The position numbers and the translations under genes are program-made. A stretch of 64,000 nt of DNA from Antedon mediterranea (lineage: Eukaryota; Animalia; Echinodermata), in NCBI RefSeq assembly GCF_964355755.1, contig NC_092678.1, positions 8,634,422 through 8,698,421 of the forward strand, given 5' to 3'. Positions 2,872 through 61,939 of this stretch are shown piece after piece; position 1 is the first letter of the stretch, and the number at the start of each line of letters is the position of its first letter. Under the pieces are notes generated by a model that searched no databases, was not told the origin of the DNA, and saw only the letters and a list, made by a program, of their open reading frames with translations.

Positions 2872-3889
2872 TTACATTTCAAATATATTGACGAGTTCTT
2901 CTGGAGACACGTTGCCACCTGTAATCACCACAACTACCGTCTTTCCAGAAACGTCTGGGACTTTATGATGCATGAGAGCAGAGAAGGCAGCGGCACCAGA
3001 TGGTTCGACCTTTAACCCCGCTTTGTAGAGAAGTTTCACAGCAGAGATGATTTCAGAGTCGCTTACAAGAAGGATGTCGTCAACAAATTTTTTGTTATGT
3101 GCAAATGAATATTTACCTTCGGTGAGAAAAATAGAGATTAAGAGTATTAGTCTATATAATATGAATTAAGTTATAGGTCTCCAAAAGTTAAAGAAGTGAA
3201 CATTAGTAATTGCGGGTGAGGTACAAAAATATTCCATAATTTTCATTCTATAATTATATCAAACATTCATGTTAGTACAGTGACGAAAACGAAACATTTG
3301 CCTACGATTTGTCTTACCAACAAATGGAGCAGATAGCCCTGGTGCAAAAGAGTGGCTTTTGTGGTCTGTGAGAGCCTTATCATTAACTAGACTTTTAAAC
3401 ATGGTACACGCTGCAAAAAAAAAACAAACTTTAAAATAAAATGTGGAAACTGACATGAGAACGCAACGCTACATAGAAAGCCAACAATGTACAATTATTT
3501 AACCGTACAAGTTTGTTTCTTTCACATCAATAATTTATGCCGAACTGATCACTCAACTTGAACTCCTTCTCCATGATCAGATTATGATAATAAACTAAAA
3601 ATGTTTCTTTTCACAAGTTTATGGAACATAATTTCGATGTACAGCGCTTTTGATAATGGTTTCAGTCTAAGAGCGCTATTTCAAAATTGTAATGTAATAA
3701 TAATTACCACATTTCTATAGGGACTATTTCATAAATAATCATACTCAAAGGCGCTTTACATAGCACATCTTTACCCCGGTCATTTTTTTGATCAAACACG
3801 TATGGAAACATACTCCCATAATGCAGCTAGTAATCAGCGCAGGTTGTGTCTTGATCTAACCGAGTACCCATTTTATACACTTGAGTGGT

Positions 3890-3920
<31 letters not shown>

Positions 3921-6889
3921 GCAAATGTAAGTTAAGTGGATTCGAACCACGATCAGAAACAAAACGTCCAACACACTGCACCACGCCCTAACATTATGTA
4001 GAACGTACGTAGATTTCTAGACAATTTGAAGTCACACAATGCCATGACATTGTAGAATCTGCATTTATCTACAATCACTGTCGAACTGAACCAAAATATC
4101 TTAAAAAGAATCCCATGTAGAAAAGCTCCAATGTAGGTCTTACCTGTTTCAGGTTCAACACCATATACTCTGCAAGGAGTCTGGCAATGTAATTTGATTG
4201 CTGTAGCTGTTCCAGCAAGTAAACTTCCTCCTCCACAACATACTATCACGATATCTGGATTAGGAACATCTTCTAGTATCTCAAGTCCTACACTGTAATA
4301 AAAGAAGAAAACTTCTTTTTTTAAACAACGTAAAACTTATTAAAAACGGTTTTATTTAGCATGATAGTAAAACCAAGTACAAGTTTAGGTCACTGTCCCG
4401 ACCAGCGATTTCTTGACATAGTCTACAACAATTGTATGAATTCATACCTTCCATGGCCTGCTATGAGGTTAAGATCATCCAATGGATGAATGAAATACAT
4501 GCCTTCATTAGCAACTTTTTCATCTACTTTACTTTGTAATTCACTGACATCAACCTTTACAACCTTTGACCCATAACGCTGCAGAGATAGAAAAAGAAAT
4601 TATCTATTAAATACGTAAATATGTGTCTTACTTATTTGATGTGAATAACAAAAACCAAAAAAAATACAATCTAAAAAATGGATTAAAAAATAAAATGATT
4701 GGATTGAGAATCATAGGTTCTGGTGAATCCACGCGGGTCTTCATTACTTAATAAAGTAAAGCAAACAGTCTTAAGCGCTTGATTCCTTGTATTTATAACT
4801 TTACTTTATTTGAGGGAGCACATGGCATCACAAGAATCACATTATTGGTCAAAGGGAGTACGCGCAAGTACAAAGCCAACCAAACCTCAAAACGGACCAC
4901 CGAAATACGGGAATCTCTATCAAACCGGAATTGTCAGACGGGTAACAGGAACTGCTGTCACAAGTGACATAAGTTTTGTATTTAATTTGCAAGTCATTCT
5001 CATTCTTTTCCTTTTGTTTTCACTATTTGAACCTTTCTTTTGTTTTAGGAAGCTATTGTGTGAAGCTAGTGAAGCAGAGTATTTGTGTTGTAGAGAAGGA
5101 TTGTGTGGAGTTTGCTGATTGGAGGAGAGGTGTCAGAGTTAAGTTAGTGTGTGAGTTGCTGATTGGTGGAGAAGGATAAGGTGGTGGTATGTGTACAATA
5201 GAGGGAATTTTGAAGGGGATGAAAATTGAGAGGAGACAGAGAAGGAGGGCTATGTTATGTTAAGCCAGAAAGAGATAGGTGAAGATTGAAATGAGAAACT
5301 AAGACGTACAGGAGAAGAAGTAATTGAATTATGGTGATATAGAGCTGAAGCAGAAAGGAAATAAAGTGATATACATAAAGTTAATAAATTGTGAGTTGGA
5401 AATAATTATGGTGATGTAGAGCTGAAGCAGAAAGGAAATAAAGTGATATACATAAAGTTAATAAATTGTGAGTTGGAAATAATTATGGTGATATAGAGCT
5501 GAAGCAGAAAGGAAATAAAGTGATATACATAAAGTTAATAAATTGTGAGTTGGAAATAATTATGGTGATGTAGAGCTGAAGCAGAAAGGAAATAAAGTGA
5601 TATACATGAAGTTAATAAATTGAAGAAATAACTGTTAGAAATAGCAGACTTAATTGCTTTTAAAGAATTGTTGAAAGTATTGAAGACTAACTTTATTGAT
5701 ACTGATATTATTTTACGTGGAAAAGGAGAAAGAAATAATTGATCGGGGAGCGGATTGCAGTGCAGACCGACATCAAGAAACATTTTAACTTTATATTTAA
5801 TTTATCTATGTCAGGAAAGAGTTGCAGTTTGGGAAGAATTATAATTGGTTATACCAGCGGAACGGGAGCAGAGGCGTGGGAGTTGTTTAGTTGCTGAATC
5901 GTTTTAACTTTTATCTTTCTAATTTGTTTTGTGTTAGCATCGAGACAGAAGAAGACAAGAAGTAACGAAATTGTGGACCTTTATTATATGTTTAATTGGG
6001 ATGTTATTGTATTTCAAAGGGGGGTTTCGGGGATTTATTTGACAATAAGAAGATTGTTGATATTTTGTCTGGAAGGATTGGGAAATTTGGGAAAGTGCAT
6101 AAAGTGTATTGGGAATAGGGATACTGTAAAGGTCGATCATTGTTTGAGAATTGGTTGGGTTTTTTTTGGTTTTTTTTGCGGGGTTTGGATTATAAAAGAA
6201 AGAATTGTTTGTCAAAGATTATTAAATTTATTTTTACATCAATTGCGAGTTGTACCGTTGTGGCTATTTACCGTTGTTCACCGGTGGTTCACATAAATTA
6301 CATGTCCGAAAGAGCCGTAGTTGCGGCTGTGTGACAACTGCATCTAAACTAGATTGAAAGGAACAATCCCCTAACGTCTGCTTTTAGAAGAGTCAACGAA
6401 ATACTTACTCTAATCAACACAGCTCGATTATCGGGCGCTGTCTTTGGCATTATTACTGTGGACCGAATACCAAGCTTATTAGCTGCATAACTTAGTGCTT
6501 TTCCGTAATTCCCGCACGACATTGTGATTACTGGCCAATCACCCTTGACAACTGCTTCTGGTAAATGTGCCATCTGATTGGCTAATCCTCTTACTTTGAA
6601 AGAACCTGAAGTTAAAATGATTTTAGTTCAAATGATGAACGTGTTTGTTTCTGTGGTGAGTGATGTTTAGCCGTTGTTCGTAAATAAAACGAAACCAACT
6701 AACAAGCCTACCTGTCATTTGTAAATTTTCTAACTTCAAGTGTAATTGGACGTTTTCCTTCATGTTAAATATTTGCTGACATCGATGGAACATTGGAGTA
6801 CGAATACATAAAGGGCTATTTTGCACAACAGTATAAGCTGAATTTAAGTTGTGTCTTGTAATTAAATCGGCACTAGTATCCCTGATTTC
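2872..6889 (-). CDS. PLP-dependent serine/threonine dehydratase / serine racemase-family protein, paralog 1 (6 exons; start codon not found)
   Basis: Manually spliced GT-AG exons: 6712-6889, 6409-6605, 4448-4578, 4144-4292, 3318-3410, 2872-3116 (TAA at 2872-2874). The joined frame is open. Motifs: KLENLQMTGSFKVRG (PLP lysine), MSCGNYG, HPLDD..IAGHGS.GLE, CCGGGSLL, GVEP, VEPSGAA, ITGGN. Confidence 0.9.
3695..3988 (-). mobile_element. tRNA-derived SINE with L2-like tail in a paralog 1 intron
   Basis: Minus strand: A box TGGTGCAGTG, B box GGTTCGAATCC, a (CT)n tract, CACTCAAGTGTATAAAATGGGTAC core and GTAAAGCGCC...(TTA)n tail. Confidence 0.6.
5325..5620. repeat. ~78-bp tandem repeat, ~4 copies, within an intronic insertion
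   Basis: AATTATGGTGAT(A/G)TAGAGCTGAAGCAGAAAGGAAATAAAGTGATATACATAAAGTTAATAAATTG repeated. Confidence 0.9.
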
Positions 6890-11121: not shown

Positions 11122-11469
11122 TTAGAAAATTTATGGCAAGATGTTATATATTAAGAATCTTAGGCTGCAACAATTGTTGAATGAGGAGACTACTGTGCCT
11201 TTGGAAAACATCCTTTACTTTTATCTTAATAAATTAGGTTCAAATTTATTGGTCTTATACTGCCCAAATGTGGTAAATGTTGTAAATGTAAATGCCACTG
11301 TTTTACAAGATCAATTCAAACCTGATCTGTTTGTATATTGAATATATTTGGGAAAATCCACAAATCAAGTTGGATTGTATTATTGTACTCCTAAAAGATA
11401 TTCCTAGAAATGGTAAACTATAATAATATCAATGAGTGTAAAATAATTTTACCATTATTATTATTATTA

Positions 11470-28009: not shown

Positions 28010-29690
28010 AAGATGGTCGATCTTCTGCGTCGAAAGATGTACAGGCCTTTTCACAGTTCAACCATGTCGCTGTGTCTATTTAATTGCCACTTCTACAATA
28101 CGTATACCATAACCGATGGAATACACAATCGCAAGCACCGTCAATGTATTTTTCTGGTGCTACCTCTGGATGATTATCCATGTATTGAATTACTTTGTCC
28201 AACGATGAAAAGGTTAACTCTTTGTGTCCTCCTTGATATTGTACTCTGCATGCCATCCCGAAGTCTATGAGCTTCGCTCAGTAGCTGGTTCTATCGTGCT
28301 GGATCAGGATGTTTCTCGCAGCTACGTCGTTGTGGAGAATCCCGCGTTTGTGCATTTGTGAGCGCAATGACAACCTCTGATGTCATAGAGATATATTCAA
28401 GCGCGCTCAAGGACGGCTTTCCGGTTCGCAATACATCCAAGAATGTGGTACTGGAAAGGGTGAAAGTATTTCCGATAAACTCCTGCACCATAGAGCATAT
28501 ACGTCACCTTGGCGGAAGACGCCAAAGACGCGAGGAACAGAACAGAAGGCAGATCGTCTAGAAACTTCATCACACGCGCTTCTACCAGCATCCTGCCCCA
28601 TGCTTGATCAAGGTTGCTGAAACTGTTAAAAAAAAAAGCCGTCTTGACAGCGACGAGGTGATAGTGGCCTGGAAAAAGATCGAATGTCATCAGGTCAACG
28701 CGGCCAAAACTCCCCTGTCCAAGACGTACAGGATTACTAAGGTAGGAAACACTTGAACTAACTAATAACTGAGCAGGCGGCAGCATTTCAGCAAGTTTTA
28801 TTGTAGCATCTATATCGTTAAGGACGTGTTTAGGTGTTGAAGTGATAGAGTTACTTTTCGAAGAACGGGACGAACCATGGAGGCTACTGGTAGGTGACAA
28901 TGGCCATTGCGATGACCGATGATTGCACACTACAAAGACGTTTCTTTTCTGGTATCTCACCAGGTGATAACTCTGATGTTGGTTGTCTGAAAATGCGCTG
29001 GACCGGAGCGGTAGACGATGAAGATGATGACGACGACGAGCTATAAACACGTTGCTTTGTAAGAATCATTTTCCCAGGCGATAGACCTGCTGTGGTAAAT
29101 ATCTGGCCAGGAGAAAGCGCAAATTTTGAAGATGACGATGTGGATGACATTGGCCACAGAGACGAATGTGATCTTGATGACTTTGATAGAGACTTTGATG
29201 ATGACTGTCGTACTGATACGTGTATCCCTGACAGCGATGCCGACACTGTGCCCGCTGATAGAGATGGTGATGATGATAATGACGACGATGACGAACTTAA
29301 GTTGCTATCCGATGATTCGTCACTTCTGATACACAAAAGATGAAGCACTGCTGCCCAAATACTGACTTTCTTGCTTGCTGGGGTGCATCTGGTTGAGATC
29401 TACTTAATTGGAAAAAAACAATTCACATAGCCTAGTAGGCCTAAGTTAAGGCGCGCCTAGGCTATGCCTCAAGGCACTAGCTAGCGTAATTAATAGGCCT
29501 AGCCTAGTAGGCTATGCCTAGCTAGCTAGCTACCTACTAGGCCTAGGACTATTACTAACTTAATTAGACCCTACTATTGGTAAAACAAACTCTTTAAATT
29601 TTTTTTGAGAAATTCCTAGGCCTAACATTAGAAAAGCTGAAGGCTAAGCCTAAAGACTTACCCTTCTTCTTGTTGCGACTGGTTCATCAT
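28010..29690 (-). pseudogene. Frameshifted protein kinase pseudogene (intronless kinase domain, Ser-rich N-terminus)
   Basis: Motifs occur in order across frames: LGQGSFGRV, VAVK, E (alphaC), VPRVFGV, VQEFIG, MHKRGILHNDVAARNILI, (stop) AKLIDFGMA, HPEVAPE, EDRPS. There are at least 3 frameshifts plus an in-frame TGA. A possible short first exon at 29662-29690 has a gtaagt donor. Confidence 0.82.
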
Positions 29691-39233: not shown

Positions 39234-42200
39234 TTAAATATCAAATATATTGGCGAGTTCTTCTGGAGACACATTACCACCTGTAATCACCACGACTACC
39301 GTCTTTCCAGAAACGTTTGGGACTTTGTGATGCATGAGAGCAGAGAAGGCAGCGGCACCAGATGGTTCAACCTTTAACCCCGCTTTGTATAGAAGTTTCA
39401 CAGCAGATATGATTTCAGAGTCACTAACAAGAAGGATGTCGTCAACAAATGCCTTGTTATGTGCAAAAGAATTTTTACCTTTAGTAAAAAAAACAACAAT
39501 AAAAACACAATACAGTAAAGATGATATTGTAGTCACGTACCATGACCTGAATAAACGCAAAATATATTTCAGTTTTGGCAATTTTTCTCTATAGTGATTC
39601 CAATGGAACCAGGCTTTTACATATCAGTAACAATAACATTGATTTATTAACCAACAAACGCCAATATATACTTAGATGCAAACATAGAAAATAAAGAATT
39701 TTGTACAAAATGCAAACTATGTCAATTCAAAAGCATATAAAACATTGATGCGAACGGTTCTTTTTAATTAACCCTTTCACTGGGAAATGTTAATTCCATC
39801 TCTGAGTACAGTAATTTTTTATAAAATGGAAAATTTGATTTCAATTTTTAAAAATACTAAAACAGGATTCTTTTATTGTTGTGAGAAAGAAAGATTAGGA
39901 AATTGGTAATTGAAATAATTTGTAGTCACATGACCATATATTTATTTTTTTAGCCATTATGTCTTTACTGGATAAAATTACATTAAAATAAAAAAAAAGA
40001 AATACCGTATATTTCGGTGTATAAGTCGCACCTGTGTATAAGACGCACCCCCTAACTGAGAGTAAAATATCGGTATTTTTTATATCGTCGGTGTATAAGA
40101 CGCACCTTATATTTCATCAAAACAATGTTTTTTAAAATTGTAATCAATATTATTGTAATAATATATTTTGTTATATCTGCAACGGCATCCTTTTATTTAT
40201 TTAGGTTTTTTTCTTACCTAGGCTCGGCCGCGCCAAGCCTCAACAGCCTCAACATCGAGTGCATGACCGCGTGTGTAACATGTACGTATGGGCTAGCCTC
40301 GCTCGATCATTTCGAGAGGGCGCACGTTTTCACGGACAATCGTATTCGATTAGTATCTATGTATGTATCCGAGAATTGAAGTGTGTACGCTAGGTCCATG
40401 CTATAATCACCTGGAGAATATATACTAGTCGAATACCGTACACCATGTGGCCGCCAAGAGGGCTTGCGCTGGGGGTACGGCGATCGTGCGTATAACTACT
40501 GTATAAATAAATACTAGGCCTATTCCAATCGTACTAGTCTGGGTTCCAGACGGAGTTTTGTCTTAATATTAGTAAAAAAGATAAATATTTTGGCACATAT
40601 GGCGTTTCATACGTATACTACTTGATTTTCAGACAAAAATCGCGGTCGCAATAAAAACAAATAAATAAAAAAAACAATACAGACTTGGGGCAAGTCTACA
40701 ATCGTACGTAAACGTTTACAAATTTTATCGACATAATGAACAAATCTTTTCATCATATTTAGTATAACATCATGCTAAAATGCCTTGAAAACTAGGCAGA
40801 AGCAGGTTGCCGTTACGTTAGTTAGTTACTGTAGCTAGGCCTAGGCCTAGCCTACTCAGCTCAGGCCTAGCAAACGAGGTGACGATAGCCTAGGCCTAGC
40901 TAGGCTAGGCCTATATGTACAATCTGTGTGGTGAGGCATTTATGTTCAGTGTATAAGACGCACCCTTAATTTAGAGGTCAAATTTGCGTGTCATAAGTGC
41001 GACTTATACACCGAAATATACGGTACCCAAAGTTTGAGAATAATTTTTATCTTTTTATATAAGAAAATACACAAAGAAATATTTTCCAACTTCCAACAAG
41101 TGAAAACTAAAGTAAAACAATATTAATATAAAACCGTATACTTCCCTACTTTGACAAACAGGCTTATAACAAAATGTTACTTTAGAGTAATTTACAAAAA
41201 AGACATTATTGTTTTTAATAAAAAATGAAAAGTAGTAACTTATTTTCAAATAATATATATATTTTTTACATCAATAAAATATCTCATTATAGTTTTCACT
41301 TACATTTTTTATTTTGGAAGGTCACATTGCAGCAAAGTCTTTTTCTGAATTATTTATACTTGAAAACTTTGAGAACAGGGCAGTTTTGGAGTTTAATTAG
41401 TTTCTGGATCATAATTTATCAAAATATTTAGTAACTTTAGTTAGAATAAAATAAAAATGTAGCTTTGATTTAGGTAATTTGCTGAAAATGTGTGAAAATA
41501 CAATGAAAGAATACTTTTTGTTGAGAACATCAAGATTGGTTGGTCAATGTCTGCTTAATTGCGAAGTGATTTGCTGTAAATTTGTTAGTTATTTAGCCTT
41601 TTGTCGGTTTATTTCGATCTATGGGTGTTTGTAGATAAGCCCTAATTATTATTATTATAATAAATTTAATATTTATATTATAGACAAATTTTGAGATGGT
41701 TAATTCAAGTTATATTGTATACATCAAAAGTCAAATAAAATCAAAATCTCAATTTTGGATAAAAAAATTGCCCTTCAATCAAAAAGGCCAGTAAAAGTAA
41801 TCTAAAATTAACAGCTTTAACTGTTGGTGTACAGTTGAGGAAATACTTGTAAACAATTATTTCTTCTATACACTGTAGTACCAGGTATAGTACGGATTGT
41901 ATAATTAGGGCGTTATAACGCCATGTAATACGGCGTTATAACGTCCTAATTACGGCGTTATAACGCCGTATCATTATAAAATTATTTTTTTCTTTGGCAG
42001 AAATCAGCCACCGTACATTTCAATGACATTGTCCATACCCAGTAGTAGCAGGTACATACACATTTCAATGACATTTTCCATACCCAGTAGTACCAGGCAG
42101 GTTAAAACAAGTTAACGTGGCTTACCAGCATAAGGAGGTGATAGCCCAGCTGCAATAGAGTGACTGGTGTGGTCTGTTACAGCATGCCCTTTCACTCGAC

Positions 42201-45200
42201 TTTGAAACATGGTACATGCTACAAAGAACAAATTTGTTCATCTCTATATAAATATGTATTAAGAATATCTTGTTTACTGTACTACAAATATAGCATTAAT
42301 AGTATTTGTATAATTAACCTTTTCACATCTGCAATAATGTTTACAACTTGTAACCAGTTTTGATCTCCTGATTTCATACATGCTGCTGCATACGCGAAAC
42401 CTGAGAAACCTCGGGAGGAAAGAATAGTTGCGCGCTATTTTATTACTATAATTGGTCAGTTTAATACTAGGGCAATACAGGCGCATGCAGTAAGAACTCA
42501 GAACATCTCGAAACAAAAACAGGCCTCATCAGTATGTTTTTCACAGAGTGTCGAGATTTTCCACAGAATTGTTTTTAATATTCACTCTATGCAAACCTGG
42601 TTACAAGTTGTTACATTTTGCAGATGATAGTGATACTAAACGATAAAATACTTTTATTGCAACTTTTGGGTTGAATTATACAAAAATATATAATTATACT
42701 TAAATGAAAATATATCATATCCATCAACAACAAAAATCAAATTACACAAAACATTGAAGAACAGACTAAACAGAAGTCAGGTGAAGATATGACTGTGCAG
42801 GGTACTTATGTAAAAGAGACCAACGAAAACAGATACGTCAAGCACACGTATTCGTTTTTCGTAAGACAGTAAAAATCTGTTTTGCATGGCAACGAAATAT
42901 TAAGGGCGCCGTCCAAAATATGACTGCGGTAAATTTAAGCGAAGCGCAGGTACGTGTTGCTTGGTGCTTGGCTGCCTAGGCCTAGCGTAACATTAAAGCG
43001 AGTGAGGACTTTAAAAACTGCTATTTATCTAAATTGACCTGGAATTTTAGTAAATTACTTTAGTAAATTACTTTCAATAAAAGTATAATTATAATATTAT
43101 AATCATGAATCATTCCTGATTCAAATGCAAAATAGATCAAAAACTATACTCGTTTTGTAGTTACGAATATGACTGGTGATATTCGTGAACACGAATACGC
43201 TTTACGAATATGAAATGGGGATCAGCTCAAAAGTTTCACAAATGTGTGACGTATCCGTTTTCGTTATCGTATTCGTAAGGTTGCGAAAACTCCCTAGTGT
43301 CACACAGACACAAACGAAATACATAGCATATTATCTTATTATTATTTAAGAATAGATTACATTTGTACATGAACTTATTGTAGGTCAAAGGATAGGCAAA
43401 TACTGAATGTCTTACCTGTTTTAGGTTCAACACCATATACTCTGCAAGGAGTCTGGCAATGTAATTTGATGGCTGCAGCTGTTCCAGCAAGCAACCCTCC
43501 ACCTCCACAACACACTAACACGATATCTGGATTGGGGACATCTTCAAGAACCTCAAGTCCTACACTGTAATAATTTAAAAAAATACACATATTATTAATC
43601 TTTAGATTAGTCAATTAGTCAGCCAATGTTCATTCAACAATGGATGCACATAAGATAAGATACCTTCGAGACCTTTAATATGGGGTGTCCTCTGAATAGA
43701 GGTTGGCCATAAAGTTAATAAGTTAATGCATTTCTCTGGTGGTGTCCTCTAAATAGGAATAGGCCTACTTGTATTAAGAGATTTATCCTTTTTACCTAAA
43801 AAAAAAGCGTTACTAATCATACACTCACACTTTAAATTTATGGTTTCACAGAATATTTGTGATGATAATTTTAAAGGAAATTTCTATTCAATCACATATT
43901 TGCTGTTTCAATCTTATTAAAAATTCTACTCGGAATTTGGCTGAAGTTAAAATCAGACAGTGTCGTACAGGAATGGCCGTGAAAACGTCTTGTCTGTGTC
44001 GGTGCTGTCCGAGTCTTGATATAGCATAGGGCTAGTTTAATATAAATATGTTTTAAGATAATCAATGATTTAAGATAAGATGAACTTTTTAAACAATATT
44101 TAATAACCAAGTGCCAATCTCAGTGACGTAATGTTAATGCTTGTTTTTTCTTATGGCCACTGTTCAGGTGCCCCTGTAAGCTCCGGCGGCCCTGGGTTTA
44201 TCCAGTGAGCACTCATAGCCATTACACCACTGACAAAACTCCTTGGCATTTCTAAGCCACACCAGTGTTAGGCTGTACGTGTGAACATGTAATGTAATTG
44301 AGTGTGAATGAATTTTAATCTCCATCCTACCTTCCATGGCCTGCTATGAGATGAAGATCATCAAAAGGATGGCAGAAATACATGCCTTCATTAGCAACTT
44401 TTTCATCTACTTTACTTTGTAATTCACTGACATCAACCTTTACAACCTTTGACCCATAACCCTGAAGAAATAATTAGTACTCGGGAAATAATAAAATTGC
44501 ACTACATATAATTGACTAACCATTGCCAATAATAATGTCATAGTAAAATTAGTACCAAACTACGGAACAATCATTGATTGATATGACACTGAATGTGGTT
44601 TTGCAACGTTACATTTTGGAACTTCTGAGGTAATCCCTGTTTCATATTTGTCAACTTTATATTTGTTTAAATATAAGCTTTGGTATTTGTAATACAAAAC
44701 AAATATGATTTTGGACAGCCCCTCAATATTTTGATTTCAGATTTTTGCTGACATGAAAACAAAATGTTATATGTGACATACAGTGTATATACAGTATTTG
44801 AATAAATGCGCCAGGGTGTTTAATGTTTGGAAGCATATTGAGAGTGGGGGGGGGGGGAGGGGGTGTTTATTCATCTATTAATGATAAAATACAGTGGAAA
44901 ATGGAACAATCTGCTTGGTCAATTGGTATCATGAAGTCAATGAATTCTACTACAAATAGAAATTTGTTGTAAAACAATATTGTGTAAAATATGCATGTGG
45001 AAAAAAACTATTCGATTGGGCTTTTATTCAAAATGGGCTTTTATTCGAATAAATAGGGTATTTGTTTTTGAATTCATATGGTTGCAAAATTTTCCTATTA
45101 TTAATCGGTTGACACACTACCTTGATTTACAATAAACACACTCCTTTGTTATAAAATATATTCAATATATAGTTACAAAGACCACAATTCATACAATATC

Positions 45201-46616
45201 CAAAACTTACTCTCATCAACACAGCTCGATTATCTGGCGCTGTCTTTGGCATTAGTACTGTGGCCTGTATACCAAGCTTATTGGCTGCATAACTTAGTGC
45301 TTTCCCATAATTTCCTGCAGACATAGTGATCACATGACAATCACCGTCCACAACTGCTTTTGGTAAATGTGCCATCTGATTGGCTAATCCTCTTACTTTA
45401 AATGAACCTGAAATTACAAAAGTTTTTTAAGGAGATTTTACAACACTATGAATGATCCTTAATACATTAAAGTAAATATGACTACAGTTTAACCGTCCCA
45501 ATTGTTCAATTTCTGCACAACTAATCTTTGGATCCAGAAAACTAATATTTTAACATCTGGACCCTCCAACCCCAGGAGCGCATCTAGGATTATTTTTGTG
45601 GGGGGCACACACGATCGTAGTGAGCAAATACACTGGCATATGCACTCTGTTGCGATCATCTGTAAAGGGTCTTGCACAGCTGCTCTTCTGGCTTGCTTCC
45701 GTTCCGACGCCGGCAAATCAAACGTTAATGTTTGTTTTCAAGACGCTCCATGCGGCTATGCGCCAATAGGCATGTAAATTAAACTTGTTAGTTGTTGTTA
45801 CACATGGATTAGCAACAGTTCGCACACGCAAGCGTTGTTGGATGTGTCGGTACGTTCAGATAGCGGGTATTTCAGCAGTTAAACAGACTGACTCGAAAGT
45901 ATGGGCTTGGGCTTCCATAAAGCCCCCCCCCCCACCCCCTTGGATCCGCGTCTGAAACCCACTCTTAAAAATAATTACTCAAGGACAATACCACAAACAA
46001 TTAACAGAGAGAGAATCTACCACTTAGTAGAGTTGCGGTTTCATTTATTAGTAGTGTTGGGTAATACTTGTTTATGGGTGGTTATACCTGAGATGAGTCA
46101 TGGTACAGAAGTTTATTTTATACAATGCAATATGCTTGTAGCATTCTACAATGTTATCCCGAGGCAGATTGCCAGCAAGATTTGCTGTCCCGACTAAATT
46201 GACTCCAACCAGGATTATAAATGGTGTTGAGAAACAAATAAACACTTCTAAAGAACAAAAGCAAAATAAAAGGCTATATTTTTTCAGCTGGATAAAGTAC
46301 AATATTTTGTGATGTTTTTGTATATAAATAATTTGCTACTTTGCTAAATTTGATTTCGATATTGAGGAACACTGATTATATAATGTGCACTAACATAATT
46401 TAGGCCATTTCTGTATGTGTACAGGAATTGAAATACAGTACCTGTCGTTTGTGAATTTTCTAACTTCAAGTGTAATTGAACATTTTCCTCTATGCTAAAT
46501 GCTTGCTGACATCGATGTATCATTGGAGTACGAATACATAAAGGACTATTTTGCACAACAGTATAAGCTGCCTTTAAGTCTTCTGTTGTAATAAAATCAC
46601 TACCTCTATTTTTCAT
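39234..46616 (-). CDS. PLP-dependent serine/threonine dehydratase / serine racemase-family protein, paralog 2 (6 exons, 329 aa from ATG 46616)
   Basis: Exons 46442-46619 (ATG at 46616), 45211-45407, 44331-44461, 43416-43564, 42126-42218, 39234-39478. Sizes 178/197/131/149/93/245 are identical to paralog 1. Motifs: ENSQTTGSFKVRG, MSAGNYG, HPFDD, CCGGGGLL, SIAAGL, VEPSGAA, ITGGN. Confidence 0.93.
40005..41023. mobile_element. pogo/Tigger (Tc1-mariner) type MITE in the last intron of paralog 2
   Basis: TA TSD; perfect TIR CCGTATATTTCGGTGTATAAGTCGCAC; internal GTGTATAAGACGCAC repeats. Confidence 0.85.
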
Positions 46617-47263
46617 TTTCTATATAAAAAATAAATAAAACAATATATTTTAAGATAGTTAATTTGTGTACATAATCGATCAATTTTTACTAATTTTAAT
46701 TAAACAAAATCATATTTGTCCCATCTACAACCATTGGGTTCCTTTTTATGTATTTTTATTTAAGAAGTAATATATCATACAAAATAATGTTAATACCAAA
46801 TTCTAATTAAAAAATGAGACAGAATCTGTCCAGTAATTATTTTTATTAACCTTTTTTCAAATTCCATTTTTTTTAAAAATAAAAGTAAAATTTTGATCCA
46901 GAGCCAAATGTTCACAACTAATGCCTTAGTAATATTATTACTAAGGCATTAGTTGTACTAATAAGAACCATAAACTATTCACACTGGCTATTCTTACAAT
47001 GATTAATAAGACAGCAATCATTAGCACATGCACAGTTGATCAAGATTTACGTGGGTTCATAACCCATCAATACCTAACTTATTTTTTTTCTTTTTTTGTA
47101 TCCACCATATTTTTATTGACCAATCTTGTTTCAATATTTTGCAAAAGAGGGATGCTTTTTTCAAAGTGTTGAGAGGCGGAGCCATAGGTTTGATTGCGTA
47201 TGCACTATCAATCATCGTAAGGACAGTCTGTGCTATATTTTTGACTGGTAATGCACCATAAAA

Positions 47264-47545
47264 CCCCCAGGGAGAGGTGCGTCATTTACAAATAGTAAAT
47301 GATGCAGAGGTAGGTAAAAAAACCGAAATGGTACATCAACTCAATAAACAATGGAGCGTCAAAGTCTGTCACTTTACCAAAAATGAACACTCAAGTTGCA
47401 TCATTGATCCAAATAAAAGGTTCCTTTGTAATTAAAAAATGGGTGTGCCATTGTCATGTAGAAGTAAGTGACTTTTTTGACAAAGGGGTCTGTAAAATAG
47501 TATGCATGACGCACATCTGACAAATGACACACCTCTTCCAGGGGT
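47264..47545. mobile_element. Small MITE-like inverted-repeat element between the Crypton ORF and paralog 2
   Basis: CCCCAGGGAGAGGTGCGTCATTT ... AAATGACACACCTCTTCCAGGGG. Confidence 0.5.
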
Positions 47546-47640
47546 CAAAAGTGCATCATATTCATACAATTGACAAAGCAAGGGTAGCCAAGGTGTATTT
47601 TAATTTTGTCATGAACTAAACAATATAATTGTTTGTTAAA

Positions 47641-48939
47641 TTATTTGTTTTTTTTGTGTGATTTCTTAACATTTACCGTGGAAGTCAATGTTGTGGGTAC
47701 TGTAAAAGATGTTGCATCTTGGATGCTATGCTGCGTGTCTTGTAACTTCAATTGTTCCTGTGATTCTGTTGAATTTAAATTCTCATTCATCAAGACATTA
47801 TCCTCAGACCAAGGTGTAGCATTTGTTGGTTCAGCATTTTCTAAATGTTCTTGCTTTATCTTGACTGTTATTGTCTTACTCATCTTGTTTATTGTTTTAT
47901 CACTGCAAGAACTAACATTTAAACGTTTCAGTGATGATTCAGATTTGCGAGCTGTTACACACATTTGGTCACGGTTGTTAAAACGAGCACGATCTAATAC
48001 AGTCATTGTTGTTGATCGTAAGCAGTGATTATTGTATAATCTGCTACAGCCAGCCATCTGACTAATCACCCTCATTTTTTTACCCAATGTGTTTATTCCT
48101 AAGGGAGAGTTCATGAACCACGGTCCATCAGCTGGAACAATATCTAAAGGTCTTTGCCACATACAATCAAGGGCTGGATTCAAGACGGCTTTATATTTCT
48201 GAAATGAAGATACTGGACAACTAGATGAGCCTGGTATTTCGTACATGTAGCCATTAATATTGGATTCTTCATCATCATCGATTTCTTTTAAAGGCCTAGA
48301 CTTTGTGAGCATGTCGCGGTGTGCAATGTATCGTAAGGGTCTGCCCTCACGTTCATTATCAGTTTCAATTATAAAATCATTCACTTTCATTTCACGAATT
48401 CTTCCATGTCCCCTAGTAGTAAAATAAATCATAATGTCCATGAATACTTTGTTCTGTAGGCCCAATGGTGTTGTAACATCTACAGCATCTGAAGCAACAA
48501 TTTTTGCCATATCTTTATTACTGATTGACTTAATAACAATCCCTTTCCCTGCCTTCTTCAGTTTCATCATCATTGCTCTGTATGCACCGTGGATTGCATG
48601 AAATTGATCAGTCTTGCTGATATCAATATCTCTAACCTTTTTAAAATGACGCTGAACGCCGTATTTAATTCCAAAAATGGACTTCTTTGTATAAAGGCTA
48701 CCGTCTGCTTTCTTCAGAGATATGAAAAATCGAGAAAGAAACTGATCAAGTTCATTTTCCTCTAATGATTCTACTTCTCCTAAGGATTTACCGGCGAGGG
48801 TTGCAAATTCACTCAAACGATTAATGGCAAAACATATTTGCTTTTGAGTATTTAATTTACCTTCATACGCTTCATACGTGCTGTCTAAAAAGTCGTTTAT
48901 TTCTGTTTCATCCACCAAGACAAACTCTGTCTCTGCCAT
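47641..48939 (-). CDS. Crypton-derived tyrosine-recombinase-like (DUF3504-type) protein, catalytically degenerate
   Basis: Uninterrupted 432-codon ORF from ATG 48939 in a good context (cacaaaATGG). Crypton-like motifs: LDQFLSRFF..LKKADGSLY, TPLGLQNKVFMDIMIYF..RG, LTKS, CPVSSFQKY...LNP....MWQRP, WF.NSPLGINTLGKKM..IS..AGCS..YNNHCLR. The expected TGH and terminal Tyr read TAR and L. Confidence 0.88.
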   Translation of the reverse strand: MAETEFVLVDETEINDFLDSTYEAYEGKLNTQKQICFAINRLSEFATLAGKSLGEVESLEENELDQFLSRFFISLKKADGSLYTKKSIFGIKYGVQRHFKKVRDIDISKTDQFHAIHGAYRAMMMKLKKAGKGIVIKSISNKDMAKIVASDAVDVTTPLGLQNKVFMDIMIYFTTRGHGRIREMKVNDFIIETDNEREGRPLRYIAHRDMLTKSRPLKEIDDDEESNINGYMYEIPGSSSCPVSSFQKYKAVLNPALDCMWQRPLDIVPADGPWFMNSPLGINTLGKKMRVISQMAGCSRLYNNHCLRSTTMTVLDRARFNNRDQMCVTARKSESSLKRLNVSSCSDKTINKMSKTITVKIKQEHLENAEPTNATPWSEDNVLMNENLNSTESQEQLKLQDTQHSIQDATSFTVPTTLTSTVNVKKSHKKNK

Positions 48940-49488
48940 TTTGTGGATTATTGAAGAATATAATAACAGTAATGTCAAAGGGCAAAATATAAAAGGTGTG
49001 TGGTGGCGCTATACATGTTTTTCTTAGAGCGGGGAGAGAGGGGGAAAGTTGAAATGGCAATCAGAAAATCGCGCGTGGTTACGCAACCGGACCATTTTAT
49101 GTCCAAATTAAGTTTGTTGCACAACTACGGTACATACGACGTGCGTCTTCTGGCCAAGTTACAAAATAACTGCTTTCGCCGTTTTAGAGAAAGACATTAA
49201 ACTAAGTAGTAATTGGACATAGCCAAAGAAAGTTTAGACCCACAAAAATAAAGAATGTGTATAATGTGTGAAGGCCTACTGTAATTTTTTTAATTTTGCT
49301 ATTTTATTATCAAACAATATGCATGTAGGCCTACTCAAAGGAACTTTAAAAATGTGCGTATATGAACACATGAGATGGGAAGATTAGACCCACGAGAATA
49401 AAAAATGTATTTTAGTGTAATGTTTATTGTTTATGTTGCTGACTTATTACTCGGACTGTGTTATACCTAACACACACACCCGTGACAG

Positions 49489-51870
49489 CGGATTACGGTC
49501 GAAGCGGCCGCCAACCAACCAAAGCGGCCGCTAGTTCAATAACGGTAATTTGTATGGAACGCCGTGTGCGCTTTGATTGTCGTTGTTTTGTCATTTTTGA
49601 TTGTCATTGTTTCGATCGTCAGGTTTTCTTTTCCTCGGACGTAAATAACAACTTACATTATTAATATTATGTAATATATTCTCTTTTTTGACAGATTGAA
49701 TGTGATACCTTCTTTTAAACGAAATGGCGAATCGATGATTACTTACTTTAACTGTTCTAAATGATATAGGCCTATATGTTTAATAAAGTCAATAAAAAAC
49801 ATTGTGGTGTTTTTATTGTATAATATATAATATGCCAATTATTAAGAATAATATATATATTTTTTCAATAAAATATATCAAATCAAAATATATATATTTG
49901 TTATTGTATATAAATATATTAGTAAAGTAACTACTGTAGGGCCTAAGTAGTACGTGTTCGCAAACATAATTTAATTACAATAACATGATGACATTAATCT
50001 ATTTATTTAATATCCTAAATTGTTTTATACCTTCAGATATATAAATATTGATCAATTTAAAATTAGTTTTAAATACTAAAATAAGACGCAAGTGCCTGTA
50101 CGGTACGGTAATTAATTACGTGAATTTCTGCTAATAACTCGACTGGCGGCGGGCCAGGAATAGTGCTGTAGAAGGTCGCGTTTTCGTCTTCACGTTGCTT
50201 CATTGAAAACACAAACAATGTATTACAATGGAATAACACTTAAATGTATAACACACCCTATTACTAATAATAAAAACCAAGATTCGATAGTACAGTGTAA
50301 ACGAGATATAAAAATTCGGCAATACCGTACGTAACTTATTATTGCAATACTGTATAAAGATTCGATGTAAATGAGATATAAAGATTCGGCAATACCGTAC
50401 GTAAATTATTAATGCAATACTGTAAAGATTCGATGTAAATTAATGAGATATAAATATTCGGCAATACCGTACGTAACTTATTATTGCAATACTGTATAAA
50501 GATTCGATGTAAATGAGATATAAAGATTCGGCAATACCGTACGTAAATTATTAATGCAATACTGTAAAGATTTGATGTAAATGAGATATAAATATTCGGC
50601 AATACCGTACGTAAATTATTATTGCAATACTGTATAAAGATTCGATGTAAATGAGATATAAAGATTCGGCAATACCGTACATGAATTATTAATGCAATAC
50701 TGTATAAAGATTTGATGTAAATTAGATATAAATATTCGGCAATACCGTACGTAAATTATTATTGCAATACTGTATAAAGATTTGATGTAAATGAGATATA
50801 AAGATTCGGCAATACCGTACGTAAATTATTAATGCAGTACTGTATAAAGATTCAATAGTATGTAAATGAGATATAAATATTCGGCAATACCGTACGTAAA
50901 TTATTAATGCAATACTGTATAAAGACTCGATAGTATGTAAATGAGATATAAAGATTCGGCAATACCTTAATAGTACGTAAATTATTATTGCAATACTGTA
51001 AAAAGATTCTATGAGATACAAGGATTCAGCAATACCGTACGTAAATTATTAATGCAATACTGTATAAGGATTCGATAGTAAATGAGATATAAATATTCGG
51101 CAATACCGTACGTAAATTATTATATTGCAATACTGTAAAAAGATTCGATAGTATGTAAATGAGATATAAAGATTCGGCAATACCGTACGTAAATTATTAT
51201 TGCAATACTGTATGAAGATTCGATAGTATGTAAATGAGATATAAAGATTCGGCAATACCGTACGTAAATTATTATTGCAATACTGTAAAAAGATTCGATA
51301 GTATGTAAATGAGATATAAAGATTCGGCAATACCGTACGTAAATTATTATTGCAATACTGTATGAAGATTCGATAGTATGTAAATGAGATATAAATATTC
51401 GCCAATACCGTACGTAAATTATTAATGCAATACTGTATAAAGATTCGATAGGAGAGTGCTCAAGAAACGTCGGGTCAAGAGGATAAAATAAACAAATAAA
51501 TAAATAGTACGTAATAAATGAGACATAGAGGTTCAATAGTATGTAGATTATGATGCAAACGTAAATTATTAATGATTCGATAATATATAATGTAAATATA
51601 TTTAGTTAGTTATTAATATTAAAATACAAATAAAATATACATTAATTTATCCGCAGGCAAACTTAATTATTATAGAAATATAAAGATTCGATAGTACATG
51701 ATTTGGCTTATATTTATTGGTTTGACCATACACACAGCTGTAACTCAACTCGCCATAGGCCATGGCGTTGACAACGACAATCAAAGATTAAAGCGCACAT
51801 GGCGTTCCATACAAATGACGATATTAAACTGGCGGCCGCTTTGGTTGGCGGCCGCTTCGACCATACTCCG
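49489..51870. mobile_element. TIR DNA element (~100-bp TIRs, 6-bp TSD TGACAG) carrying an internal satellite
   Basis: CGGATTACGGTCGAAGCGGCCGCCAACC... / ...GGTTGGCGGCCGCTTCGACCATACTCCG; TGACAG at 49483-49488 and 51871-51876. Confidence 0.75.
50280..51450. repeat. Tandem array of ~70-75-bp units, ~16 copies
   Basis: Unit AAAGATTCGGCAATACCGTACGTAAATTATTATTGCAATACTGTATAAAGATTCGATGTAAATGAGATAT, head to tail, no unique spacers. Confidence 0.95.
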
Positions 51871-54404: not shown

Positions 54405-55200
54405 TCTTAAAAGTACGTTTGTATTGTGCTTATCATGTGCATATAAACTACCTAATATGTCAATCTTAATTATTAATTAATTTGAATTATATAGTGTTAT
54501 TAATAAACAAATCGCAACAAGATAGCGTTAGTTATAATATTGCGACCGTGTGATATAAAGCATATTCGTTGTTGACGACGTAATTGAACACTTCTGCACT
54601 TAAAAGTACGTTTGTATTGTGCTTATCATGTGCATATAAAGTACCTAATATGTCAATCTTAATTATTAATTAATTTGAATTATATATTTATTTATTTGGA
54701 ATTACACCTTTAGATCGGTGGCACACTTAGCACAAAGGTGCATCCTTCACAATATAAAATAACAATTAACAGAAAAGTAAAAAAAGGCAAAAGCAACTAT
54801 CAACCCCTATCCTACCCCCCCCCCCCCCCCCATTTACTTAATGTAGCAATGTAGATAACATAGTTATTGAGTCATGGAATTCAGTGAATCATTTCGAAAT
54901 TCCCATGCTTGTTTTAGGTATCTTTTACAAAAACTATCCAAAATATTTTCACACTCTTCATCAATTAAATTATCTGAGTATCCCAAAATATATTTAAGTT
55001 TGTCATTTTCATGAGAAGTATAAAAAGTATCAAACATATCTTTGCTGCCATTTCTATACATATCCACATATAAATTAAATAATTCCTGATTACGTATATT
55101 ATTTAAAGCTGGACAATTAAGGATGAAATGATGGATGTCTTCGTCCGAATTTGTACCGCACAATTTACATTTTTTATTATTATCAATATTCCAATTTGCA

Positions 55201-55246
<46 letters not shown>

Positions 55247-55610
55247 TTATTAATAAACAAATCGCAACAAGATAGCGTTAGTTATAATATTGCGACCGTG
55301 TGATATAAAGCATATTCGTTGTTGACGACGTAATTGAACACTTCTGCACTTAAAAGTACGTTTGTATTGTGCTTATCATGTGCATATAAAGTACCTAATA
55401 TGTCAACCTTAAATATGAATTAATTTGAATTATATAGCGTTATTAATAAACAAATCGCAACAAGATAGCGTTAGTTATAATATTGCGACCGTGTGATATA
55501 AAGCATATTCGTTGTTGACGACGTAATTGAACACTTCTACACTTAAAAGTACGTTTGTATTGTGCTTATCATGTGCATATAAAGTACCTAATATGTCAAT
55601 CTGAAATATT
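54405..55610. repeat. ~192-bp tandem repeat (about 3.5 units), interrupted by a LINE fragment and (TA)n
   Basis: CTTAAAAGTACGTTTGTATTGTGCTTATCATGTGC recurs at ~54406, 54599, 55349 and 55543. Confidence 0.9.
54688..55200 (-). mobile_element. 5'-truncated LINE 3' end with CCHC zinc knuckle
   Basis: CKLCG..SDEDIHHFILNCP motif, 3' UTR and (TAAA)n tail; inserted in a tandem-repeat unit. Confidence 0.7.
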
Positions 55611-57005: not shown

Positions 57006-57769
57006 TTAAATTAAAAGGCATGTGTGACCAACCCAATTATAATAAGGTACTATCAGTACACTCATCTTGACCAACTTAATTCACGATCCTTACATACAGT
57101 ATGCAGATCAGAATATTATGTCACTCTTAGATATAATGATAAATAATTACTTTGTGATTTTGAACAAACTTTGAACATAATAAAACGTTGTAACATTAGA
57201 TGACATTTAGAGCGGAATCATGCTGTACAATATGTTGTTACCATTAGTGTTCCGAAAATCTTATTTGGTTAATATGAGCTTTGAAAACAACTAAAAACCA
57301 ACATAAGTAAAGCAATTACTATTTGTAGTTGAACGACCGATGACAACAGTGTTCCGTTTTTTTTGCAAAATTGTATCAAAATAACTTCAAAGAAAAACAA
57401 GGACACATAATAATACAAAGAAAAAAAACCCACTGCTTCACCGATAAGTGGGGTTTTGTTGTTGTTGATGTAGAGTTAATTTGTAGTACTGCAGCAACAT
57501 TTGGCCAATCCAATTTAAACGACCAAAAGTGGGTGACATTTCTGACTCAAAATATACAATGGCACTTTATGTTTTTGTTCATTGTACTCAACGAAATATC
57601 TAACTAGTGTATGTCTTCAACTTTAAAAAAAAAAAAAAAAAAGTAAAGAAACGCTACCACACATGAGAACACTTAACCAAACGGACATAGTAAACAGAAA
57701 AAACGTGTTCTCTTTTTTTAAATCAACAAGTAATGGTCCATATTCCGTCGGTAAGAAACAAGCTGTTAA

Positions 57770-58190
57770 TGACACCGCACAATTTTAACGTTCTTAATGA
57801 TCAGTCGTTCAAAGTCATTTTCGTTCTGAATTTGCTTGGGTTTTTCTTCACCTTTACACAGGGCCCATATCTTGAATCTGTTAGTCCAGGCGCGTTGAAC
57901 TCCATCATGGTGTCTCACTTCCAAAAAAGATTGAAATTTGCTTTTGTCTTCTGAAAAAAAAAAACCGGCACACCCTTCAGTTTGGATTTGGCTGATTGAA
58001 TTAAACCGAACAATTATTGACCTAGTTTTGTCAGTAATAGGACCGATTCGATGAGATACTTCAATATCGTCGGACTTGAAAGTGATACCCATTTTGTCGC
58101 GAATAACCTCCTCCACCAAATCATCAGTTGACTTTTCCGTTAAGGTTAATACGACGTGAATATTTTCTTTCTTCAGCTTATCAACATCTA
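57770..58190 (-). mobile_element. LINE ORF1-like fragment
   Basis: STDDLV.EVIRDKMGI.....DIEVSHRIG......RSIIVRF ... VQRAWT resembles the RRM/CTD of non-LTR ORF1 proteins. Confidence 0.6.
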
Positions 58191-59379
58191 ACTTCAGGGC
58201 CATGATTACACTTGCTTTTATACAGTACCACCGGTTAACTGTTTTCCATATCAGGTTACAATCACAACTGGTAATCTTGGCCAAATTTACTAATTTGCAT
58301 AAATGACGCAGGTGTTTGGTAACCTTATTAAAAGGATTTTGATTTGCATATGGCTGGAACAGCAATAATTAACCTTGCAGTGCTTTCAACGGCGACACAA
58401 TGACAATAGATGCGGTATCATGGGGGTACAATACTCACTGCTAATTTACACCGACAGAGCATTGACCATCATCTTTAAAAGTTTACATGATAAGTCCTAG
58501 ATGCTATTTACAATGATTTATGAAACAGTAGGAAAAAACAAAGATAACTTTCTCTTAGAAACTTAAAGCTTCACTTGTTTTTTTCAATAATGTGTTATTA
58601 CTATTGTTAAATCGGTGTAGTGTAACCAGTTTGTCTATTTTTAACAACAGATATCTTATACTTAGATTACTAACTATTATCATTTTATTGTGATGACATG
58701 CAAGATGATATTAATGTGAATAAAAGTGGTGGTGTATATGCCACAAAAGAGAGAAAAAAACTATTATCATGGTCACTGATTTAGGCCTACAAAAATTGTA
58801 TTTTAAGTAAACTTAGAATACGTATCCTTTACAATACGGTTACAGATTTAATAGATCTGACATCAGACTACGACAAACCAATACTTAATCAGTAGAACTA
58901 TGACGTCTTTTGTTGTTAATTCGCATCTATAACTCAAACTTTTGACAATAACTCTAATCTGTACATTTCTGTTTTTAATTTTAACCATTTTTAATCGTTT
59001 TTAAAAGTATTTTAACCTGGTCTATAGCGTTTTTGCAATTTGATGTACTGTATATCTCTTTATTGTTTTATTGCTTTAACTATGCCAAGCACAGCACCAT
59101 TTTAAAAGGACCAATAAAATGTATTGAATCTTAAATAATCACGCTATTTATATGAGAAGAAACTTCTATGTTTATTATGACACAGTATTTCAATTCATAT
59201 ATTTTAAACAAAACAATAGTTTTAAAAAAGTCCATGCTTAAACACTTGATAAGCACAACAATTATGTGAAACACGAATTACACGCAAGAAAAACAGTTTT
59301 CTTTTTTGTTTTCATTCTTTCGAACTTATAATTCATACGATTTGTGTGCATTGCTTAAAAAGGTACTTTGTTATGTTAT

Positions 59380-60788: not shown

Positions 60789-61242
60789 ATGAATCTTACG
60801 TTTATGGTTACGCTTATGACGCTTGTTACATCTTTTGTGTACGGTAAGTACAGTTGACATATATATTATATATTTATAAGGACCTCAGTTTTTAACAATA
60901 ATTTATAGTTTGAAGGTTTGCAAGGAGGTAATCTTTCTAGAGGAAAAATAAAGAAATCGACTCTTAGGGTAATGTATTAAATCAAACTTTATGATTTTAC
61001 AGGTTATATTATGTTCGTGGCCAACGAGAAACCTCCGGGAATTTACATGTCCAATATAAGTTATAGCGAAAGCAACAATCTAAGTTTTTCATTAGCAATA
61101 CAGAATGTTACATTTAAATATCTCAAGGCTCTTGATTACGATACGAATACCTCAACGTTGTACTGGAGTGATGTCAACAAGGAGACTATTGAACGGTATT
61201 CATTTTTAACAGACCAACATGATGTCTTTCTTTCATCACCAA
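60789..61242 (+). CDS. 5' part (coding exons 1-2) of a secreted/membrane YWTD beta-propeller, LDL-receptor/LRP-family-like protein; further exons not found in the window
   Basis: Exon 60789-60843 encodes a signal-peptide-like MNLTFMVTLMTLVTSFVY ending G|gtaagt. Exon 61003-61242 (tttacag|, ends A|gtaagc) is in frame and contains ALDYD....LYWSDV....IER, an LDLR class B/YWTD repeat. Confidence 0.75.
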
Positions 61243-61939
61243 GTAAGCAACTATTATTACCTAAAACTATATCCCCTGCAATATCAACATCATGTATGTA
61301 GTGGATATTTTGTAAATTCTTACAACTAGATGGTTCTCGAATACATTGTCGTTTACAGAAACGAAATAGACACAATGATTTATGTAGTCAACCAAAATTA
61401 GCACCCAATTTGTGTTTGTATGTAACATTAGGGTTGAGGGATGGGGAAGAGGAACGATGTTTTAATATATTCTATCCACTCAGCAGAAGGACTTTTTATA
61501 TGTACAAAAAGATTGTAATTTTGGTTGATGGTTTTGTTGAAAAAGTTCCAAAATTTGTGAAAATTATGTCTTTTTTAAACATAGATTCTAAACTACGTGG
61601 TGAACTTTTTTTAAATTACATATTCTGGAAGTAGATGAGTTGTAGATATCGAATCATGCATCAATATGGCTAACCGGACATTGTGACGCCATCGTATGGC
61701 CACTCGAATATAAAATATAGGATTTTTGTCTCTTTCGTCATATCGCATCACATTTAATAGAGCGCATCTCCACTTATCCGTATTCCATTTTCCCCCCATT
61801 TTTTTATTGTCTAGGTCAATCAATTATCTTTCACATGATTTACCAGTTTTAAAATGTTGATGACGTCATCATGTTCAAAAGCGTCAATAACTTTGGTCAC
61901 TTATTTTCACCTATTCTGAACTGTATGTAGTACGTATAT

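Follow-up and report, generated by a model that had tools for sequence, protein, structure and literature searches.

A Crypton-derived exon spliced onto a pyridoxal-phosphate enzyme gene in the crinoid Antedon mediterranea

The minus strand of a 64-kb stretch of Antedon mediterranea DNA (64,000 nucleotides of contig NC_092678.1, positions 8,634,422 to 8,698,421; hereafter the window) carries a gene in which a Crypton tyrosine-recombinase exon is spliced in frame onto the six exons of an enzyme dependent on pyridoxal 5'-phosphate (PLP). This gene had been proposed in an earlier reading of the bare letters (the sequence-only reading), and its coordinates all held on recheck: an ATG at 48939, a donor at 47676-47675, an acceptor opening an exon at 46619, and a single fused frame. 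The Crypton part contributes 1263 nucleotides (nt) and the enzyme part 993 nt, which makes 2256 nt and therefore a frame of 751 amino acids (aa), with a single stop at its end. All introns of the fusion gene are GT-AG. From 5' to 3', its features are the following.

48861..49033, minus strand: opening exon of the short isoform, which is at the same time the 5' portion of the long exon, covered by a contig of sequencing run X1; it holds the 5' leader and the first 79 nt of the Crypton coding sequence
47677..48939, minus strand: Crypton tyrosine-recombinase exon of 421 codons, ATG at 48939, phase-0 donor GT at 47676-47675
48846..48880, minus strand: some five inserted codons, including a short tandem duplication, missing from 10 aligned relatives
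48390..48434, minus strand: candidate internal acceptor, with an inferred exon start at 48412, just upstream of Met184 (48390)
47641..47676, minus strand: read-through stretch up to the former transposon stop, where the intron now begins; an X1 contig joins across it
46620..47676, minus strand: fusion intron of 1057 nt, GT-AG, phase 0, from the sequence and an X1 joint
46442..46619, minus strand: enzyme exon 1, 178 nt, with a phase-0 acceptor common to both isoforms and its own ATG at 46616
45211..45407, minus strand: enzyme exon 2, 197 nt, with the PLP-lysine motif and an S-A-G-N motif
44331..44461, minus strand: enzyme exon 3, 131 nt (exon model)
43416..43564, minus strand: enzyme exon 4, 149 nt, with the glycine-rich phosphate loop
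42126..42218, minus strand: enzyme exon 5, 93 nt (exon model)
39234..39478, minus strand: enzyme exon 6, 245 nt including the stop (exon model and protein match)

Position 49033 is the 5'-most base under an X1 contig and not a mapped transcription start. The fusion intron also contains a perfect 21-bp inverted repeat with a 1-nt spacer, at 46914-46956.

Transcript and annotation evidence for two junctions

Five sequencing runs cover the region, none of them on record as RNA, and their contigs yield neither abundance nor single molecules. The RNA status of X1 was guessed: one of its contigs covers exactly one exon (45405-45210) and has overhangs matching the neighbouring exon, and X1 therefore behaves as RNA. 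A 1243-nt X1 contig covers 48890 to 47677 and resumes at 46619-46591, skipping 1057 nt (CT..AC on the plus strand, GT-AG on the minus strand), which is the junction that had been predicted. A second X1 contig joins 48861 to 46619 and skips 2241 nt with GT-AG borders, while a third (49033-48861) overlaps both joint-bearing contigs. Each joint has only 29 letters on its short side, below the 31-letter bridging rule of the tool. Two further runs from one sample, X2 and X4, are unspliced over the donor (47442-49220 and 47598-49220). The donor of the second joint, the GT at 48860, is the best-scoring among the 121 GT sites in 49100-46620 and outscores the fusion donor.

RefSeq independently models the same two junctions. 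Protein XP_071960598.1 (335 aa), to which the last exon of the enzyme is 100% identical, corresponds to translation from the ATG at 48875 across the 48861 junction, and together with the X1 joint it bears out the earlier suggestion of a stand-alone isoform. Its cluster partner, XP_071960597.1 (568 aa), consists of Crypton residues 184-421 joined to the enzyme; since the two parts meet at the predicted junction, the fusion was already present in the automatic annotation, named merely threonine dehydratase and with half a domain that is invisible to Pfam. This model starts at Met184, in the middle of the domain, and not at Met1. Use of the candidate acceptor at 48412, which ties for the best pyrimidine tract, would yield exactly such a 568-aa open reading frame (ORF), as two of 34 AG sites do. 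No use of it was seen in X1, where the contig is unbroken at this place. Read-through to the old transposon stop was not seen in X1 either, in which 47547-47676 lies without cover and only the joining contig is informative. None of the transcript patterns that the sequence-only reading had named as contradicting it, such as a lack of junction reads, appears in the X1 contigs or in RefSeq.

It is very improbable that the joint arose by mis-assembly or from a processed copy, with the two ORFs belonging to separate genes. The short 29-letter sides, the guessed status of X1 and RefSeq read support that we have not seen leave this explanation some room. On the contrary side, the joint falls exactly at the predicted GT-AG borders, another GT-AG joint, from an alternative donor, leads into the same acceptor, the DNA-like runs show no splicing, and both junctions are in RefSeq. 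The fusion mRNA exists, with hardly any room for doubt, and a fusion protein is probably made from it.

The Crypton exon and the enzyme it joins

The five closest aligned relatives of the Crypton exon share 52-56% identity with it, and four of them have the full catalytic set. Its Pfam DUF3504 match (E 1e-4, 22.9 bits) lies below the cutoff of 29.7 and is accompanied by a weak QRICH1 match; the close relatives P0001 and P0003 exceed the DUF3504 cutoff. Foldseek with the predicted Antedon domain returned first 9HJT (QRICH1-SEPHS1 Zincore) and then Cre, at E ~1e-4. The AlphaFold model is confident at residues ~30-130 and poor after 310.

Alignment to about 148 homologues shows that R176, K213, H305 and R308 are kept and that the R-G-R-E-N motif is changed at three places. 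The second His is lost, as the His331 position holds Arg. The column of the Tyr nucleophile, in which Tyr is the commonest residue among relatives (101 of ~148 rows), holds Val (residue 342) after a two-residue insertion, and no Tyr occurs in the Antedon Crypton ORF after residue 302. With Tyr replaced by Val and H331 by Arg, the intact R-H-R-Y tetrad of active CryptonA is not present. In the tyrosine recombinase (YR) mechanism, as given in the available parts of PMC13465315 and PMC3212892, the catalytic Tyr acts as the nucleophile; since it is gone, the Antedon protein would be unable to cut DNA. Judged on these residues, the exon is not an active Crypton transposon, and the recombinase is dead, as had been supposed.

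The ORF aligns with its relatives from the first residues to the tail, and the ATG at 48939 is therefore the element's own start. Consequently, one detail of the sequence-only reading has to be revised: what it took for a low-complexity linker is really the C-terminal tail of the Crypton protein itself, alignable to relatives. The conserved tail motif of these relatives is gone from the read-through tail in Antedon. No convincing flanking pair of terminal direct repeats was found in 46620-50500, and tblastn found no further Crypton-like sequence in the window. In X2 and X4, one contig spans the exon with no pile-up of others at >=90% identity, depth not being equivalent to copy number here.

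The enzyme half is complete, in agreement with the sequence-only reading, its six exons of 993 nt holding all PLP motifs. PALP (PF00291), of fold type II, matches at 225 bits against a cutoff of 35, and the PLP lysine, glycine loop and C-terminal motifs are intact, at 482, 510, 610, 707 and 736 of the fusion. Among solved structures, the closest are the serine racemase of S. pombe and TdcB, and the best NCBIfam matches all fall under their own cutoffs. Serine racemase was considered as the identity of this enzyme and, judged on one catalytic residue, rejected. In the racemase, Ser84 is the second catalytic base and essential for racemisation (available part of PMC5998037); the equivalent position in the fusion enzyme holds Ala, as in TdcB, and an intact enzyme of the Ser/Thr dehydratase type is therefore the better reading of the residues. 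Its orthologs are the animal TdcB-like, or 'L-threonine ammonia-lyase-like', subfamily (zebrafish si:ch73-263o4.4), with all PLP motifs in common. They differ from the Antedon fusion in that most members seen are ~320-335 aa long and stand alone.

Isoforms, selection and possible function

The Crypton element supplies the sole first exon seen for the fusion paralog, and the short isoform, like the long one, starts inside it, a point absent from the sequence-only reading. The insertion of about five codons carries the in-frame ATGs of the short isoform (48875 and 48866) and adjoins the donor at 48860. The Crypton ATG stands in a strong context (A at -3, G at +4) and begins, in the short mRNA, an upstream ORF (uORF) of 30 codons; the uORF stop at 46608-46606 falls beyond all three enzyme-frame ATGs (48875, 48866 and 46616). 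Because this uORF runs past every one of them, production of the plain enzyme from the short mRNA would need leaky scanning.

We propose that the element inserted upstream of the paralog and now provides its first exon and probably its promoter. Its two donors, both feeding one acceptor, would give a plain-enzyme mRNA and a fusion mRNA, and the long mRNA would use productively the same Crypton ATG that opens the uORF in the short one. The dead recombinase could grip DNA or bind partners without cutting, because the DNA-contacting residues R176, K213, H305 and R308 remain, as does an N-terminal helical domain that is well predicted. Should the enzyme form dimers as serine racemase does, the fusion would display two recombinase-derived domains and might bring Ser/Thr deamination, or the enzyme fold as a scaffold, to chromatin. 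Such a chromatin role is tentative and, taken by itself, rather less likely than not. Taken as a whole, the reading in which a captured exon gives a functional 751-aa long isoform, likely kept by selection and tethering the enzyme to DNA or chromatin partners, has in our estimate a probability of about 0.5.

Selection on the exon was assessed with columns at least 90% conserved among 24 relatives. Nine of 59 such near-invariant columns (15%) are altered in Antedon; the same test gives 0-3 changes in P0001-P0004 and P0006, and up to 19/67 in distant or damaged relatives. Neutral decay matching 9/59 would amount to ~6-8% nt change, at which the probability of no stop in 421 codons is 0.02-0.04. 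The six indel runs in residues 20-340 are all of whole codons. Additionally, four of the five differences listed for X1 in the exon are synonymous (P = 0.009, rising to 0.03 should an unlisted sixth difference be missense). Purifying selection on the fused exon is suggested by these numbers, weakly, as they are small, and we lean slightly toward its amino-acid sequence being selected.

One alternative is a young, neutral exonisation, in which a recently inactivated Crypton happened to lie upstream with cryptic donors and a frame open by chance. The element is still >50% identical to intact Cryptons, the fusion was found in one species only, and at 2-4% nt decay the probability of no stop would be 0.12-0.35. 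However, the change in near-invariant columns implies decay above 2-4%, and several whole-codon indels, the single-nucleotide polymorphism (SNP) bias and the lack of near-identical sister copies piling up on the exon speak against it. We regard this course of events as improbable.

A more credible rival, which we nevertheless do not favor, is that the element contributes nothing beyond a promoter and a first exon, and that the Crypton domain is tolerated, functionless baggage. The long frame would then stay open as a needed source of active enzyme, the short mRNA being throttled by the uORF that overlaps all its enzyme-frame ATGs. This explains why stops and frameshifts are missing alongside conserved columns that are changed in all regions. 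Furthermore, the enzyme's own Met lies just past the acceptor or junction in Antedon as in Anneissia, S. purpuratus and catfishes, so that any upstream exon could fuse in frame. The synonymous bias of the SNPs (4/5, P = 0.009-0.03), on the contrary, suggests selection on amino acids, and the N-termini of the urchin and catfish fusions described below are 66% and 84-89% identical, above the level expected of baggage, which speaks for those genes and not for Antedon's.

Several observations weigh against a selected long isoform that tethers the enzyme to chromatin. The transcript evidence comes from one RNA-like run, as contigs with 29 letters on the short side of each joint, and no single molecule spans Met1 to the stop; the RefSeq fusion begins at Met184 and so is without the N-terminal DNA-binding half. 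The changed conserved columns are spread over all three regions of the domain (2/14, 3/32 and 4/13), and because change occurs in every region, relaxed amino-acid constraint fits too. The no-stop probability is inflated, because the open frame is the reason the locus was chosen, and the whole-codon indels could predate inactivation. The C-terminal catalytic region is poorly modelled by AlphaFold (mean predicted local distance difference test, pLDDT, 57), and a crude scan gave no nuclear localisation signal (NLS) in the Crypton part of Antedon or in the catfish N-terminus. PALP occurs on 0/164 Crypton homologues, and the only other crinoid seen, Anneissia, bears THAP and not a Crypton on its enzyme. 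The search that found the other fusions took only proteins of >=355 aa and had no control family. Of the 16 matches (34-60% BLAST identity) from a near-length search with the Crypton ORF, none has PALP, and a DUF3504+PALP protein was found in no other species, crinoid sampling being thin. This absence of orthologs is weak evidence, because clustering at 90% hid the Antedon fusion itself behind the short form.

Related fusions and other features of the window

The fusion is a transposase capture with a metabolic enzyme as host, laid out like KCTD1 isoform b. Its catalytic Tyr is lost, its frame is open and it is transcribed within a host gene, the sequence marks of a domesticated DUF3504 domain such as those of KCTD1, KIAA1958, QRICH1 and ZMYM/WOC. 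KCTD1 isoform b joins a Crypton DUF3504 exon to BTB/POZ (Kojima and Jurka 2011, available part of PMC3212892), and there too the Crypton lies upstream of the host gene, DUF3504 occupies a single exon, the catalytic Tyr is lost, and a long fused isoform coexists with a short stand-alone one. By the same partial text, the two differ in the host part (a BTB domain there, a PLP enzyme in Antedon) and in distribution (all jawed vertebrates there, one species for the Antedon fusion), and the Antedon short isoform differs in that it also begins within the Crypton exon. Antedon also keeps the second catalytic Arg, which all six human Crypton-derived genes lost (same part of PMC3212892). The domestications described in that part include many transcription regulators and none fused to a metabolic enzyme. 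The Antedon fusion, at >50% identity to intact elements, is young enough for its steps to be visible: the nucleophile has gone, a donor lies a short way before the former stop, and inserted codons bring the second donor's ATGs, which preserves the plain enzyme.

SEPHS1 is a protein of the selenophosphate-synthetase family. The DUF3504 domain of QRICH1 binds it in Zincore (available part of 10.64898/2026.10.26.761783; PDB 9HJT), which resembles the Antedon case in that a dead Crypton-derived domain is partnered with an enzyme-family protein in gene regulation. As far as that part goes, Zincore differs in being a non-covalent complex with an unrelated enzyme fold and an ancient domestication. 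The fold match of 9HJT to the Antedon domain is weak (E 1e-4, template modelling score, TM, ~0.3), and we claim no interface. In host-transposase fusions, as set out in the available part of Cosby et al. (10.1101/2020.05.07.082677), the domain from the transposable element (TE) lies on its own exon and is alternatively spliced, and DNA-binding domains predominate. The Antedon gene shows this form of capture, its transposon domain being a separate exon joined in frame by alternative splicing. In the cases of that part, KRAB is the one that recurs among 55 host domains and the acceptor usually comes from the TE, whereas in Antedon the TE, a tyrosine recombinase, gives the donors and the first exon and the recurrent partner is a metabolic enzyme. 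No published account of the fusion or of its recurrence was found in the open-licence literature; the supplements of 10.1101/2020.05.07.082677 and PMC12062965 may list related cases.

The same enzyme subfamily carries other N-terminal domains elsewhere, which the sequence-only reading had not noticed. Searches with the enzyme gave 31 matches and then 29 clusters, limited to 355-1133 aa and the top 7996 candidates, and the N-terminal domain is of DNA-binding type in six of these 29. THAP and the Tc5 helix-turn-helix (HTH) are domains with which transposases bind DNA, and CaRF too is a DNA-binding factor. Both isoforms seen in the crinoid Anneissia japonica (P0020/P0049) carry an N-terminal THAP domain (E 2e-16). 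In sea urchins (P0050/P0055/P0243/P0244; two clusters), ALS2CR8/CaRF precedes the enzyme in S. purpuratus, Lytechinus pictus and L. variegatus. These urchin forms make up their own paralog clade (support 100/98) in an enzyme tree of 31 of 32 rows, from which Apostichopus was removed by a motif filter; their N-termini are 66% identical, and a classical basic NLS-type motif lies at the junction. For ALS2CR8, an Atlas match to GCM (0.76) is no more than a lead to a possible transposon origin. Catfishes of the Ictaluridae, Pangasiidae and Bagridae (P0253/P0061/P0064; two clusters) have 577-aa proteins with a 254-aa Cys/His-rich, zinc-finger-like N-terminal region, which is 84-89% identical between families versus 90-92% for the enzyme. 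The annotation of Tachysurus fulvidraco has the region as a protein of its own whose sequence departs at the junction, in the way expected if the donor were left unspliced. This catfish N-terminus has no Pfam match, its C2H2-type Atlas matches (0.90-0.92) are leads only, and the fold prediction of the catfish fusion (mean pLDDT 41.7) is unusable. The opah protein (P0065) has a weak Tc5/pogo HTH (E 0.012) in a single model.

Judged mostly by length, no domain of DNA-binding type was seen in the members from Amphiura, Apostichopus, amphioxus, Lingula and Haliotis, nor in those from shark, Danio, characiforms and Silurus. Two other candidates were set aside. A 908-aa Holothuria leucospilota model (P0056) has the endonuclease and reverse transcriptase (RT) of a long interspersed nuclear element (LINE) within the enzyme. 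It is likely an artefact of gene modelling across an intronic retroelement and shows that artefacts occur among such models. The Aldrovandia protein (P0063) has an acidic N-terminus with no domain and was left out of the tally.

That the subfamily is a recurrent target for the capture of DNA-binding domains, comparable to KRAB in tetrapods, with at least four independent lineages selected to tether the enzyme to chromatin, we consider rather doubtful. The main alternative to selection is that fusion is made easy, because the enzyme's own Met sits at the junction in Anneissia, S. purpuratus, the catfishes and Antedon. If recurrent tethering were true, these proteins could supply or remove serine, threonine, 2-oxo acids and ammonia locally, or act as a transcription regulator that senses PLP or amino acids, and if the recurrence holds against a control it would imply an unrecognised nuclear role for a widespread animal enzyme. 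It is the part of the finding most worth following. The urchin fusions are conserved across genera and the catfish ones across families.

The window also holds a second copy of the enzyme.

2872..6889, minus strand: paralog 1 (XP_071960851.1), with the same six exon sizes and 275 of 331 positions identical to the fusion enzyme

The two enzymes share 83% aa identity, with a synonymous divergence (dS) of ~0.26, and no Crypton remnant was found upstream of paralog 1 within the window. The 178-bp exon of paralog 1 indeed has no ATG at its start, as had been remarked before. Paralog 1 carries Cys where the racemase has Ser84 and the fusion enzyme Ala, and its glycine loop contains Ser. Its RefSeq model opens with two residues from an upstream exon, and this first exon was not located in the window. 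Two ATG-plus-donor candidates, at 11721 and 19090, both fall inside copies of one ~430-bp repeat (85% identical), and the first exon of paralog 1 may therefore be repeat-derived too. Upstream of this paralog, a similar short tandem unit forms two oppositely oriented arrays (7800-8950 and 10270-11200), which yield many spurious ORFs. A third paralog model in Antedon, XP_071959798.1 (P0019), is truncated at 175 aa.

A GC-rich island at 28397-29399 (minus strand) contains two overlapping frames, one of them with kinase-like glycine-loop and lysine motifs by eye; neither frame has a Pfam match at E 0.1, and the island is possibly a decayed kinase or mobile-element gene. Putative decayed fragments of non-long-terminal-repeat (non-LTR) retrotransposons, RT- or ORF1-like by eye, lie at 12574-13276, 54864-55277, 57766-58368 and 62085-63014, and the frame at 57769-58365 has no Pfam match. 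Finally, a stretch at 60981-61301 (plus strand) resembles, by eye, YWTD repeats of the low-density lipoprotein (LDL) receptor and is probably an exon of a neighbouring gene.

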